A program made the position numbers and the translations under genes. The notes beneath the pieces were generated by a model that did not search any database, was not told the DNA's origin, and saw nothing but the letters and a program-made list of their open reading frames with translations. From Escherichia phage RB14: a DNA stretch of 64,000 nucleotides. Location: the sequence record NC_012638.1; one strand, 5' to 3'. Shown one piece after another: positions 1,096 to 30,619 of the stretch. Within the stretch, counting starts at the first letter, position 1, and each line of letters opens with the position of its first letter.

Positions 1096-1672
1096 ATTCT
1101 CTGCATTCCTTCACAAATTTTTCTAGTAATAAATCGCTTTCAAAATTGGGATTTTCTACGAATTTATCAAAAAGATCATCAACAATAGTTAAGATATTCT
1201 TTTTACTAAGAATACGTTTATTTTCATGCTTCGTTTCAGAATCAACTATAAGAGTAAAGAAATATTTCTTGCCCTGAAATTTTACCGTAGTATCAATATA
1301 AAATAAATTTGACTTTTGTAAGTTACGTTTAAACCATGCGTCACTTAAACTATAAACACCGAGATAATCAAAATCGTCGTTTAAATAACAAACTGACCAT
1401 TCAGGAGAAATGAAATCAGTAAATTCAACATCAAAATCACATGTCAATGAATGAATTGATTCAATACTGTTAATAAGTATTCCAGGACGTATTAAAGACT
1501 TTTTACCTCTGGAAAATCTTCCAGAAAGACTTTCATCAGTTTCATATGAAGAACCCCAATAATAATTACGTCCTTCTGCCATACGTTTAAGAGCATTTAG
1601 TAATTGGTCTGGAACATCAACCTGTCTTTGGAACTCTTCAAACATTGAATTGAAATCACTTTGCATTTTCAT
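1064..1672 (-). CDS. hypothetical protein
   Basis: 202 aa ORF with ATG and GGAG RBS; gene packing consistent with minus-strand early operon. Confidence 0.65.
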   Translation of the reverse strand: MKMQSDFNSMFEEFQRQVDVPDQLLNALKRMAEGRNYYWGSSYETDESLSGRFSRGKKSLIRPGILINSIESIHSLTCDFDVEFTDFISPEWSVCYLNDDFDYLGVYSLSDAWFKRNLQKSNLFYIDTTVKFQGKKYFFTLIVDSETKHENKRILSKKNILTIVDDLFDKFVENPNFESDLLLEKFVKECREYVKAINVSSK

Positions 1673-3098: not shown

Positions 3099-3662
3099 TT
3101 ATTTACCTAGTTTAGTTATTATAGCTTCGGCAGCAGCTTTTAGCTTAGATGCAGTGTTAATACGATTTTTAATTTCAGTATAAGCATCGCCAAGAACATC
3201 AAGGCTATCAGAATAAACACTTACACTATTGCGTTCGCTATTTGAAATAGAACCTTTAGTTTTACGATCAAAATCGGTATACACGTCTTGAAGATCGCGG
3301 GCTGCCTTCTTTGCATCATCCAATGCATCAAGAGCTTTATTCAAAGCATTAACATATTTTTTAGTGTCGAACATATTCTTAGAAATTTTGACAGGTGCGC
3401 GTTCAGGAGTAGCTAAGGCAGATTTAGGAACTTGAGCGCCAGATGCTAGTTTCTTAGAAATTTTGAAAAATGCTTTATTGAAATTATTTTCTTGACTCAT
3501 CGTAAAAGAACTATTATCGATGTTATACATTTCAATAGCTTTAGCTTTCCACTTAAGAAAATCGCCACGGTCTTTTGGGTCCAAGTGGAAGAATACTTTA
3601 GTAAGATCTGCTTCAGATGGTAATTTTGCTGCTTCGGTTAAAAATTCGGCATAAGTTTTCAT
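3099..3662 (-). CDS. internal head protein, IPIII-like, with N-terminal capsid-targeting sequence
   Basis: 187 aa; begins MKTYAEFLTE then AAK, matching T-even capsid-targeting leader ending in L-x-E prohead-protease site; basic Lys-rich body; AAGGA RBS. Confidence 0.65.
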   Translation of the reverse strand: MKTYAEFLTEAAKLPSEADLTKVFFHLDPKDRGDFLKWKAKAIEMYNIDNSSFTMSQENNFNKAFFKISKKLASGAQVPKSALATPERAPVKISKNMFDTKKYVNALNKALDALDDAKKAARDLQDVYTDFDRKTKGSISNSERNSVSVYSDSLDVLGDAYTEIKNRINTASKLKAAAEAIITKLGK

Positions 3663-3745
3663 TTAAAATCCTTGAAATAATTTATTGGTTATTAATTATT
3701 TATCACGTTGTTATCATCCATGTTAGCATTCTCTGAGTGATTCAA

Positions 3746-3776
3746 ACTAAAAAGCCCCAACCTTTCGGTCGGGGCT
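3746..3776 (-). terminator. rho-independent terminator at distal end of tRNA/stable-RNA transcription unit
   Basis: Minus-strand hairpin AGCCCCGACC-GAAA-GGTTGGGGCT followed by TTTTT; hairpin is better paired on minus strand (G-U instead of A-C). Confidence 0.7.
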
Positions 3777-3777
3777 A

Positions 3778-4092
3778 AGCCTTGCGGCAACCTTGTCGGG
3801 GTTCCACCTGCTAAGGCAAGTGTTTGTACGAAACGCCGGGATTCGAACCCGGTTATTAAGCAGTTGACGCTACTCAATATTTTTAAAAGGCCATATCTCG
3901 ACCATATCCGAACGTTCCGTCAAAAACGCTACTCGGCTTATGGCAAAGATATTTCCTCGAATCGATAATTCGGTGCGCCGTTTCTGCTGTGATATAAGGG
4001 GGCATTAACAAAACATAAAGATTTATTAATGCCAGTCCTTAAACAGGGAACATCAGTCCGACGACTTGCCGGTAGCGACCCGGCTTCTTGTC
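3778..4092 (-). ncRNA. structured non-coding region, candidate small stable RNA(s) or tRNA remnant
   Basis: No credible ORF; lies between tRNA-Arg and terminator; contains isolated tRNA T-arm-like element CCGGGTTCGAATCCCGG (plus 3836..3852) without matching acceptor stem, and 8-bp hairpin GGCATTAA/TTAATGCC (4001..4033). Confidence 0.3.
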
Positions 4093-4168
4093 TGGTCGAG
4101 GCAGTAGGGATCGAACCTACGACCCAGGACTTAGAAGGTCCTTGCTCTTCCTTCTGAGCTATGCCTCG
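4093..4168 (-). tRNA. tRNA-Arg (anticodon TCT)
   Basis: Manual cloverleaf: acceptor CGAGGCA/TGCCTCG, anticodon loop CTTCTAA, T-arm GTAGG-TTCGATC-CCTAC, encoded CCA. Confidence 0.8.
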
Positions 4169-4172
4169 TATT

Positions 4173-4247
4173 TGGCGGACGTGATAGGATTCGAACCTAT
4201 AACCAATCGCTTAACAGGCGATCGCTCTGCCATTGAGCTACACATCC
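4173..4247 (-). tRNA. tRNA-Asn (anticodon GTT)
   Basis: Acceptor GGATGTG/CACGTCC, anticodon loop CTGTTAA, T-arm ATAGG-TTCGAAT-CCTAT, encoded CCA. Confidence 0.75.
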
Positions 4248-4251
4248 AAAT

Positions 4252-4338
4252 TGGTGGGGAGTGATGGAGTCGAACCACCCGAGTCGCAATGACAATGAAT
4301 TTACAGTCCACACCGCTACCTCTACGGGATAACTCCCC
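4252..4338 (-). tRNA. tRNA-Tyr (anticodon GTA), long variable arm
   Basis: 87 nt; acceptor GGGGAGT/ACTCCCC perfect, anticodon loop CTGTAAA, T-arm GGTGG-TTCGACT-CCATC, encoded CCA; isotype call from loop reading. Confidence 0.65.
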
Positions 4339-4347
4339 TAATTAATT

Positions 4348-4422
4348 TGGTGGCCCTGGGTGGAATTGAACCACCATCTGGCGATTATGAGTCGCTTGCT
4401 TGAACCTTCCAGCTACAGGGCC
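4348..4422 (-). tRNA. tRNA with CAT anticodon (Met, or Ile if C34 is modified as in T4 tRNA-Ile)
   Basis: Acceptor GGCCCTG/CAGGGCC, anticodon loop CTCATAA, T-arm GGTGG-TTCAATT-CCACC, encoded CCA. Confidence 0.7.
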
Positions 4423-4423
4423 T

Positions 4424-4499
4424 TGGTGCTGATTGACGGAATCGAACCGCCGACCTTCTCATTACAAGTGAGTTGCTCTACCTACTGAGCTAAATCAGC
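4424..4499 (-). tRNA. tRNA-Thr (anticodon TGT)
   Basis: Acceptor GCTGATT/AATCAGC, anticodon loop CTTGTAA, T-arm GGCGG-TTCGATT-CCGTC, encoded CCA. Confidence 0.8.
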
Positions 4500-4504
4500 A
4501 AAAC

Positions 4505-4594
4505 TGGCGGAGGCGATAGGATTTGAACCTATGAGTCGCCGGAGCGACTGCCGGTTTTCAAGACCGGTGCATTAAACCACTCTGCCACGCCTCC
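4505..4594 (-). tRNA. tRNA-Ser (anticodon TGA), long variable arm
   Basis: 90 nt; acceptor GGAGGCG/CGCCTCC, anticodon stem CCGGT/ACCGG with loop CTTGAAA, encoded CCA. Confidence 0.8.
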
Positions 4595-4596
4595 AG

Positions 4597-4670
4597 TCTC
4601 CATACAAGGATTTGAACCTTGGACCTCCTGATCCCAAATCAGGCGCTCTACCAAACTGAGCTACACGGAG
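4597..4670 (-). tRNA. tRNA-Pro (anticodon TGG), CCA not encoded
   Basis: Acceptor CTCCGTG/TATGGAG with two G-U pairs, anticodon stem CCTGA/TCAGG with loop TTTGGGA; 2 nt from tRNA-Ser 5' end (dimeric precursor arrangement). Confidence 0.75.
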
Positions 4671-4680
4671 TAAATTAAAT

Positions 4681-4754
<74 letters not shown>

Positions 4755-4759
4755 AAATT

Positions 4760-4846
4760 TGGTGCGAGAAGTGGGACTCGAACCCACAAGGAAATCATTC
4801 CGCAGCATTTTAAGTGCTGTGCCTTTACCAATTTGACCATTCTCGC
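4760..4846 (-). tRNA. tRNA-Leu (anticodon TAA), long variable arm
   Basis: 87 nt; acceptor GCGAGAA/TTCTCGC, anticodon stem CAGCA/TGCTG with loop CTTAAAA, encoded CCA. Confidence 0.8.
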
Positions 4847-4847
4847 G

Positions 4848-4920
4848 CTGGGAATAAAGGACTCGAACCTTTGCATCCTGGAATCAAAATCCAGTGCCTT
4901 ACCAACTTGGCTAATTCCCA
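4848..4920 (-). tRNA. tRNA-Gln (anticodon TTG), CCA not encoded
   Basis: Acceptor TGGGAAT/ATTCCCA, anticodon stem CTGGA/TCCAG with loop TTTTGAT; abuts tRNA-Leu with 1-nt spacer. Confidence 0.8.
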
Positions 4921-5017: not shown

Positions 5018-5305
5018 TTACCATTTATGATAATACGTATTTACGATACATTCAAGACCCAAAGGATTCTTGAAAATATCATATTCAAGAGGACCTTTTT
5101 CTGTTTCAATAAAGAAATCAAAATTTACTATATTAAATTTACGGTCTTCCTTCACTAATTTAACCTGAGAAGATGAACGGTCAATGTAAACCTTTTCAAC
5201 TTCAAAACATGTTAAAATGCCATAATCATCAATCAAGGCTTTAGCTGCTTCTTGATCATATTTATATCCATTTTCAATGGATGATACTTTAGCATAAAGA
5301 ATCAT
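5018..5305 (-). CDS. hypothetical protein
   Basis: 95 aa ORF with ATG; stop/start tightly packed with 5308..5718. Confidence 0.6.
   Translation of the reverse strand: MILYAKVSSIENGYKYDQEAAKALIDDYGILTCFEVEKVYIDRSSSQVKLVKEDRKFNIVNFDFFIETEKGPLEYDIFKNPLGLECIVNTYYHKW

Positions 5306-27481: not shown

Positions 27482-30619
<3,138 letters not shown>

Follow-up and report, generated by a model that had tools for sequence, protein, structure and literature searches.

The stretch at positions 3778..4092 of Escherichia phage RB14 (NC_012638.1), analysed within a window of 64,000 nt, is identified by alignment as encoding orthologues of the T4 stable RNAs rnaD and rnaC, which would be the final pair of RNAs yielded by the transcript of the tRNA operon. 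Both RNAs, their parts and the tRNA genes and terminator around them lie on the minus strand. The locus itself is already known as T4 rnaC/rnaD; what our analysis adds is a structural model backed by covariation and, judging from the homologues recovered, a distribution wider than the annotations show. An earlier note, made from the letters alone, had proposed stable small RNAs co-transcribed with the tRNAs, either counterparts of the stable RNAs of T4 or a decayed tRNA. The first of these ideas is borne out by a three-way alignment with the annotated genomes of T4 (NC_000866) and RB27 (KM607000), from which the boundaries were carried over (coordinates were checked by script). rnaD, the species 2 RNA of T4, is 120 nt long and occupies 4091..3972, its first bases being ACAAGAAG and its last GGCGCACC. 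rnaC, the species 1 RNA, occupies 3965..3827 with the 139 nt that T4 annotates, and its conserved 3' tail runs on to 3825. The stretch is not the single unit envisaged earlier: in order of transcription tRNA-Arg is followed by rnaD, a 6-nt spacer, rnaC, a trailer of about 50 nt and a terminator.

The T4 record lists tRNA-Arg, rnaD ('small, stable RNA; species 2 RNA') and rnaC ('species 1 RNA') in this order, as does that of RB27. The same arrangement is found here: tRNA-Arg and rnaD precede rnaC, and the terminator comes after it. rnaD starts 1-2 nt past the CCA of tRNA-Arg, which is encoded and separated from the rnaD start by a single base, and ends a few nucleotides before rnaC. The closest genomes to the window are those of RB27, RB3 and Shfl2-type phages, placing it among the T4-like phages of the genus Tequatrovirus. 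A blastn search with 3700..4170 against 50,697 phage records matched 938 of them, and in several (RB27, RB33, Aplg8) rnaC and rnaD are annotated beneath the match. rnaC was matched in 744 phage records, with at least 95% identity in 679 of these, and rnaD, the more variable of the two, in 733. To T4 rnaC (AF158101/NC_000866, 70908..71046 of the latter), which has the same position after rnaD and before the terminator and the same predicted fold, rnaC is 97.8% identical over 139/139 nt. The three substitutions lie at nt 25 (G.U to A-U) and nt 105 (A-U to G-U), where the pairs are kept, and at nt 66, in a one-nucleotide bulge. rnaD is 86.4% identical to T4 rnaD (NC_000866 71053..71171), which likewise directly follows tRNA-Arg and has the same helices P1, P2 and P3; the central hairpin differs at several positions and the closing pair of P1 is A-U in T4 and G-C in the window. 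The identity rises to 100% with an RB3 record annotated 'rnaD: species II RNA'. Covariance models built for the two RNAs score 163.6 bits (rnaC, model R1) and 146.8 bits (rnaD, model R2) in the window.

The fold of minimum free energy (MFE) of rnaC, at -50.6 kcal/mol (z = -4.1 against dinucleotide shuffles), is a four-way junction. One of its arms is the T arm CCGGG-UUCGAAU-CCCGG that had been noticed before (nt 114-130, 3836..3852), in which G116-C128 is U-A in most other genera. It had been described as isolated, with no acceptor arm that could be paired, and here the description fails: nt 2-8 (CGAUUCG, 3958..3964) are predicted to pair with nt 131-137 (CGUUUCG, 3835..3829) in a 7-bp acceptor-like stem. 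This stem escaped notice since the RNA's own 5' end supplies the first strand, some 130 nt before the T arm is reached. In this phage it contains tandem U.U mismatches (5.134 and 6.133), positions at which Pectobacterium phage PM2 and the Klebsiella Jiaodavirus phage Roth16 have Watson-Crick pairs; A4-U135 is replaced by G4-C135 in other genera, and compensatory changes occur at 4/7 pairs. An alternative acceptor, taken from the Rfam alignment to tRNA-Sec, would pair the internal ACGGAACG (nt 47-54) with CGUUUCGU. We rejected it because the 3' strand CGUUCCGU mostly meets ACGAAACG, an A.C mismatch, and because it is the stem 2-8/131-137 that co-varies.

The remainder of the junction is not tRNA-like. 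A long irregular arm of 70 nt (nt 9-78, 3888..3957) consists of five helical segments with compensatory changes at 21/25 pairs. The CCATATC direct repeat reported earlier is present at 3891..3897 and 3902..3908, and each copy forms the 3' strand of one such segment. An A-rich linker (nt 79-86) leads to hairpin 2 (nt 87-112, 3854..3879), which has a 10-bp stem with compensatory changes at 10/10 pairs and the loop CGUCAA.

Homologues of rnaC for comparison were collected by blastn in other genera, by degenerate pattern scans of IMG/VR and metagenomes, and with the covariance model R1, which was built from 17 sequences. When these 17 were aligned with MAFFT, unfitted to any structure, 88.3% of the pair cells were paired, against 37-47% in slid controls, and 26 pairs showed changes on both sides, a number reached by none of 500 shuffles. 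The 22 distinct sequences aligned to the covariance model gave 87.6% paired cells (37-49% when slid) and compensatory changes at 38 of 51 pairs. Moreover, seven of eight homologues folded alone, including five of the six divergent ones and that of Roth16, returned the same four-way junction, the long arm being predicted independently in the same five divergent sequences and in Roth16. Conserved secondary structure across related phages, on which the earlier proposal had been made to depend, is thus found, and the comparisons indicate that rnaC is a conserved folded RNA.

The comparisons also extend to the loops. The long arm carries in its apical loop the motif GACG (nt 45-48, 3918..3921), which is complementary to CGUC in the loop of hairpin 2 (nt 97-100, 3869..3866). 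All four pairs are standard in each of the 22 distinct sequences, and both motifs are unchanged in 17 of them. The variants are GGCG/CGCC, in the Marfavirus clade of Klebsiella phages, and GCAG/CUGC, in Roth16, whose rnaC was recovered only via the covariance model and is mis-annotated in the record as a coding sequence (CDS). At two of the four loop-loop pairs both partners have thereby changed, in two separate lineages, a pattern that speaks for a kissing-loop contact between the long arm and hairpin 2, within one molecule or between two.

The molecule ends in the tail UACA (nt 138-141, 3825..3828) with a discriminator-like U138. U138, C140 and A141 are invariant in 22/22 sequences, in contrast to the flanking spacer, which varies. 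Position 139 is A in most lineages, including the window, and C in Marfavirus, PM2 and Jiaodavirus, so that these encode U-CCA after a 7-bp stem. In PM2 (our locus L008), and in this lineage only, the U-CCA tail occurs together with a G.U at the third acceptor pair. The same position carries the major alanine identity element in tRNAs; the likeness is probably a coincidence.

How far, then, is rnaC a tRNA? With canonical tRNAs of class II or the tRNA-Sec type, which have a long extra arm, it shares an acceptor-like stem of 7 bp next to a T stem of 5 bp, the T loop UUCGAAU, which some lineages lack, a discriminator-like nucleotide followed by (A/C)CA, the setting in a tRNA array and tRNA-like spacers. 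The decoding half, that is the D and anticodon arms, is replaced by the 70-nt arm, the 10-bp hairpin and the putative kissing-loop contact. With no D arm and no anticodon arm rnaC falls outside the tRNA family (RF00005). It is not a transfer-messenger RNA (tmRNA) either, since it has neither a tag reading frame nor tmRNA pseudoknots. The search programs agree. ARAGORN found ten tRNAs in the window, none of them in 3778..4092, and no tmRNA. Rfam 15, which has no family for rnaC or rnaD, gave no tRNA match in the stretch at the gathering score and detected only the tRNAs of the array. At E values up to 10 on 3600..4200 there were only chance-level matches (tRNA-Sec, isrK, sar and tmRNA fragments). 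The only tRNA-related match in the stretch was tRNA-Sec (16.6 bits, E = 2); the T arm segment is the source of the weak tRNA-Sec and tmRNA-type matches, the latter reaching 10.1 bits within rnaC on the T arm alone, and a separate tmRNA match of 11 bits fell on the neighbouring tRNA-Asn. Of the checks suggested by the earlier note, the Rfam search yielded no family above the gathering score beyond the tRNAs, while folding of the minus strand gave the low z scores of -4.1 for rnaC and -3.8 for rnaD. A scan for the T-loop consensus GGTTCGAATCC (at most one mismatch) gave 9 occurrences in the window where 0.54 were expected. Eight fall in the tRNA/rnaC block; the ninth (29705..29715) sits inside an ORF (open reading frame) of 610 amino acids (aa) and was dismissed as chance.

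It might be argued that rnaC and rnaD are decayed tRNA genes, as the earlier note allowed, or functionless spacer that folds by chance. All that rnaC keeps of a tRNA is indeed the half with the acceptor and the T arm, neither ARAGORN nor the Rfam tRNA model calls it, and some annotators have labelled fragments of it tRNA-Met or tRNA-OTHER. A pseudogene, however, would not be expected to keep its loop nucleotides invariant or co-varying, nor to show compensatory changes at 38/51 pairs with 87.6% of cells paired, and in rnaC these changes fall mostly in the arms that are not tRNA-like (the long arm and hairpin 2). In other words the non-tRNA-like parts are under strong purifying selection. Given in addition the identity of at least 95% in 679/744 records, decay is highly improbable. 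We regard rnaC as a tRNA look-alike without the decoding half and not as a tRNA, a view that rests on its comparative anatomy. As a concept, an acceptor/T-arm module on a body that is not a tRNA is shared with the tRNA-like domain of tmRNA, with bacterial YrlA and with the 3' tRNA-like structures of plant viruses, and so is the presumed handling by tRNA enzymes; in sequence and architecture these are unrelated to rnaC. The 5' end of rnaC, GAUUCGAGG, resembles the motif GGAUUCGACGGG at the 5' end of E. coli tmRNA, and this was judged coincidental because the rnaC bases are a strand of the co-varying helix.

rnaD, too, folds stably (MFE -39.1 kcal/mol, z = -3.8 against dinucleotide shuffles). 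After a single-stranded 5' tail of 7 nt comes the P1 hairpin GCCGG-GUCGCUA-CCGGC (nt 8-24, pairing 8-12/20-24; 4068..4084), in which each of the five pairs has undergone compensatory change between genera and 100% of cells are paired; pair 8-24 is G-C here and A-U in most relatives. P2 is closed, in the RNAalifold consensus, by nt 27-33 (GUCGUCG, 4059..4065) and nt 112-119 (CGGCGCAC, 3980..3973), so that rnaD is sealed with one 3' nucleotide left unpaired. Its innermost pair has changed from G-C to C-G in 2 of the 5 divergent homologues aligned (types GC:6 CG:2). P3 joins nt 38-43 (GAUGUU, 4049..4054) to nt 104-109 (AGCAGA, 3988..3983). In this phage it includes tandem G.A/A.G pairs (38.109 and 39.108), the helix returned by RNAalifold being 40-43/104-107; in locus L011 the tandem positions read as U-A pairs. 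U40-A107 is replaced by A40-U107 in 6 of 18 sequences and U42.G105 by C42-G105 in two. Taken together, P1-P3 have 95.7% of cells paired against 29-42% when slid, with compensatory changes at 9 of 16 pairs, in an alignment fitted to R2.

Between the strands of P3 lies a variable central domain (nt 44-103, 3989..4048), evident from the alignments and the sequence listing. It includes the hairpin at 4001..4033 (GGCAUUAA...UUAAUGCC) that had been picked out before. The 18 distinct rnaD sequences of Tequatrovirus, Mosigvirus and Dhakavirus have invariant 5' (about nt 1-48) and 3' (about nt 100-120) parts, and the domain between them comes in three unrelated versions, that of the window and T4, that of T2 and that of Dhakavirus, which are shuffled among backgrounds and each of which folds to hairpins. 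Further afield, R2 picked up homologues that score weakly yet are convincing, in PM2, Citrobacter phage Moon, Marfavirus and two Karamvirus-like contigs. In all five lineages the homologue stands directly after a tRNA 3' end and carries the common motifs AAGUCGUC, UGUUCCCUG, AUCACAGC and GGCGC. We also considered rnaD as a permuted tRNA-like RNA made of the P1 hairpin and the next strand, and dropped the idea since P1 has no T-loop signature. From these alignments rnaD is best described as an old, structured member of tRNA arrays with a conserved fold and a replaceable central hairpin.

In most phage records rnaC and rnaD are unannotated or overlain by 'hypothetical protein' CDSs; PG7 calls the 3' 95 nt of rnaC tRNA-Met, and G9062 calls it tRNA-OTHER. 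Taken at face value, the CDS features that many records put over one or other RNA would imply small proteins, and the minus strand does hold a 61-aa and a 42-aa ORF, both with TTG starts. All ORFs overlapping 3778..4092 are at most 61 aa long and mostly begin with TTG, in agreement with the earlier view that none is credible. The two TTG-start ORFs cross the RNA boundaries and enter the terminator, the substitutions are paired changes that preserve helices, and in the curated records of T4 and the RB phages the locus is annotated as RNA. A coding function is scarcely conceivable.

In Tequatrovirus rnaC comes last in the operon. In the other genera it is enclosed by the tRNA array, with the nearest tRNA on either side 4-9 nt away, and tRNAs flank it in EcS1, PG7, Virsaitis27, Proteus phage ABTNLPp2, PM2 and Roth16. 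The rnaD/rnaC spacer GAAUUA (3971..3966) is the counterpart of the spacer between a tRNA 3' CCA and rnaC in these genera. In Dhakavirus (L024, L025), on the other hand, rnaC and its leader are exactly absent (compare 3825..3971 of the window) and rnaD joins the same 3' trailer and terminator. Because of this clean absence and the mid-array placement elsewhere, rnaC can be said to behave as a cassette the size of a tRNA gene, and it occurs as a discrete cassette in the tRNA arrays of many Tevenvirinae genera.

The metagenome pattern scan gave 17 loci, of which 13 were T4-like contigs with real rnaC; the other four (L044, L047, L049 and L050) were discarded as chance matches. In 185,579 bacterial and archaeal species genomes the degenerate pattern had four matches, about the chance estimate and none fitting the covariance model, so that no cellular homologue of rnaC was found there. 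No rnaC was detected in the 10-kb tRNA region of the KVP40-like Vibrio phage V09 (L065) either. The best match there, 20 bits, is apparently a tRNA-like gene with an insertion, unannotated, at about 1214..1322; its acceptor stem, D arm, T arm and CCA are normal, some 40 extra nucleotides take the place of the anticodon arm, and it is unrelated to rnaC. In the tRNA-array region of Roth16 (L064) a gene annotated as the anti-CBASS protein Acb1 is located at 3409..3858, so that counter-defence genes and tRNA arrays are interleaved in this phage.

Our favoured reading, which we consider quite probable as a whole, is that the stretch holds the rnaD and rnaC orthologues, that both are excised by tRNA-type processing, and that rnaC is a non-decoding tRNA mimic. 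The processing is suggested by the tRNA-like anatomy of rnaC and by the spacers of 4-9 nt that separate it, in other genera, from the tRNAs on either side. rnaC would be excised by the host enzymes of tRNA maturation, with RNase P cutting at the 5' end and an endonuclease followed by 3' exonuclease trimming at the 3' end. rnaD would be the structured RNA that remains once tRNA-Arg has been processed at its 3' end and rnaC has been cut at its 5' end. Its 5' end would stem from the cut that matures tRNA-Arg; in E. coli, RNase E is reported to cut 1-3 nt past the tRNA CCA (PMC2190699). Its 3' end would be trimmed back to the closing helix P2, leaving the terminal bases given above, in CC.

The same structures could alternatively have no role in trans and act in cis, shielding the tRNA transcript from 3' exonucleases or organising its processing. 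Both RNAs are closed, stable folds, and the Tequatrovirus operon has them at its 3' end, immediately ahead of the terminator; the viability of T4 deletions of the tRNA region would also suit such a role. In other genera, however, rnaC lies mid-array with tRNAs on both sides, and homologues of rnaD occur mid-array too. A protective hairpin would not need invariant loops, a tertiary contact that co-varies and a conserved U-N-C-A tail, and discrete small stable RNAs are annotated in the records of T4 and the RB phages, RNAC having been detected by Northern blot (PMC9697503). A purely cis-acting role is therefore unlikely.

If the RNAs do act in trans, they might be base-pairing regulatory small RNAs with targets in host or phage mRNAs. 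The term 'small regulatory RNAs' is applied to them in recent papers (PMC9697503, PMC12685909), and the 7-nt single-stranded 5' tail of rnaD and its fast-evolving central hairpin would be suited to such a function. Against this, the most conserved loop sequences of rnaC pair with each other and are not free, no target is known (PMC3014915), and blastn with the 315-nt stretch on both strands found no match in 5,426 complete E. coli genomes at E values up to 1, a search to which seeds shorter than 11 nt are invisible. We regard regulation by base pairing as decidedly improbable.

Within the favoured reading, it could tentatively be supposed that some factor recognises tRNAs by their acceptor/T-arm half or by their 3' end, and that rnaC, itself non-decoding, competes for this factor or serves it as a decoy, with rnaD having a host-dependent role; a host toxin or nuclease which attacks tRNA ends during infection might conceivably be the factor. 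A more specific and rather doubtful version makes rnaC an acceptor-end mimic, a decoy against host defence toxins whose point of attack, by modification or cleavage, is the 3' end or the acceptor stem of tRNAs, and rnaD a second, host-specific counter-defence RNA. Here the kissing-loop scaffold would present the 7-bp acceptor/T-arm helix, a U73-type discriminator and a CCA end, the CCA being encoded in some lineages and possibly added in others. If true, two RNAs described 50 years ago would at last have a function. A host-dependent role for rnaD is suggested by its swappable domain together with a recent evolution experiment (2025), in which three independent lines of a T4-like phage adapted to E. 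coli ECOR34 shared one single-nucleotide polymorphism (SNP) in the rnaD region (PMC12685909). In the adapted phage with this SNP the virulence measure (RBG) rose from 0.17 to 0.98 (PMC12685909).

Several observations weigh against the favoured reading or parts of it. Each kissing-loop variant is confined to one clade, so that the loop covariation rests on two independent events, and it fits an intramolecular contact and a dimer contact alike. The tail is UACA, and not UCCA, in this phage and most relatives. The T4 annotation even ends rnaC at A139, and a tRNA-like CCA end may accordingly be absent in Tequatrovirus. The T loop UUCGAAU is replaced by UGCAUGC or UGCAUC in five lineages (L009, L015, L021, L023 and L057); since the canonical loop has been lost there, a tRNA-type elbow is not universally required. 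On laboratory hosts T4 remains viable when its whole tRNA region is deleted, and any function of rnaC or rnaD would therefore be conditional. Finally, the position of the ECOR34 SNP within rnaD is ambiguous in the text of that paper (PMC12685909).

The array to which the two RNAs belong comprises ten tRNA genes (4920..4093, ARAGORN) in the order Gln, Leu, Gly, Pro, Ser, Thr, Met, Tyr, Asn and Arg. The last, tRNA-Arg (UCU), lies at 4168..4093 and scores 65.8 bits with the Rfam tRNA model. A sequence resembling a T4 late promoter, TATAAATA, occurs at 5259..5266 inside an upstream ORF, about 340 nt upstream of the first tRNA. It could provide late expression of the array, as reported for T4 RNAC and RNAD. 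Some Tequatrovirus phages (T2, JB75, Aplg8) have insertions of about 350-550 bp between tRNA-Arg and rnaD. That of T2 (L026 552..902) is a 117-aa ORF and that of Aplg8 is 364 nt long. T4 has the homing-endonuclease gene segB upstream of tRNA-Arg, whereas the window has neither segB nor an insertion between tRNA-Arg and rnaD. This distribution suggests that the junctions flanking rnaD are insertion hot spots.

On the other side, the 3' trailer between rnaC and the terminator (3777..3824) is conserved in T4, and between the two phages it is as well conserved as rnaC itself. By folding it has a small hairpin at 3821..3806, and it carries CCCCGACAAGGUUG, resembling a partial copy of the terminator stem CCCCGACCGAAAGGUUGGGG; this may have been left by a duplication or may act as a signal for processing. 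The strong terminator announced at 3746..3776 is indeed there: the terminator scan finds an intrinsic terminator of the tRNA/stable-RNA operon with a G+C-rich stem of 10 pairs (3776..3753), seven of them G-C, followed by a U-tract. At the equivalent site a terminator is annotated in Aplg8 and fPS-90.

Two small stable RNAs of T4 were known, and first sequenced, in the 1970s. Papers from 2010 to 2025 give no function for rnaC or rnaD; an omics study of 2022, in which T4 RNAC was probed by Northern blot, lists RNAC and RNAD as late RNAs 'of yet unknown functions' (PMC9697503). That rnaC accumulates in infected cells as a stable species of about 140 nt is known from T4, through its record annotation and this Northern blot. 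Covariance models such as R1 and R2 would mend the spurious 'hypothetical protein' and 'tRNA' annotations that now cover both RNAs. For rnaC there is now an anatomy that can be tested, consisting of the co-varying acceptor stem, the co-varying loop-loop contact and the conserved U-N-C-A tail. Equally open to test is its cassette-like presence or absence in the tRNA arrays of many enterobacterial T4-like genera.

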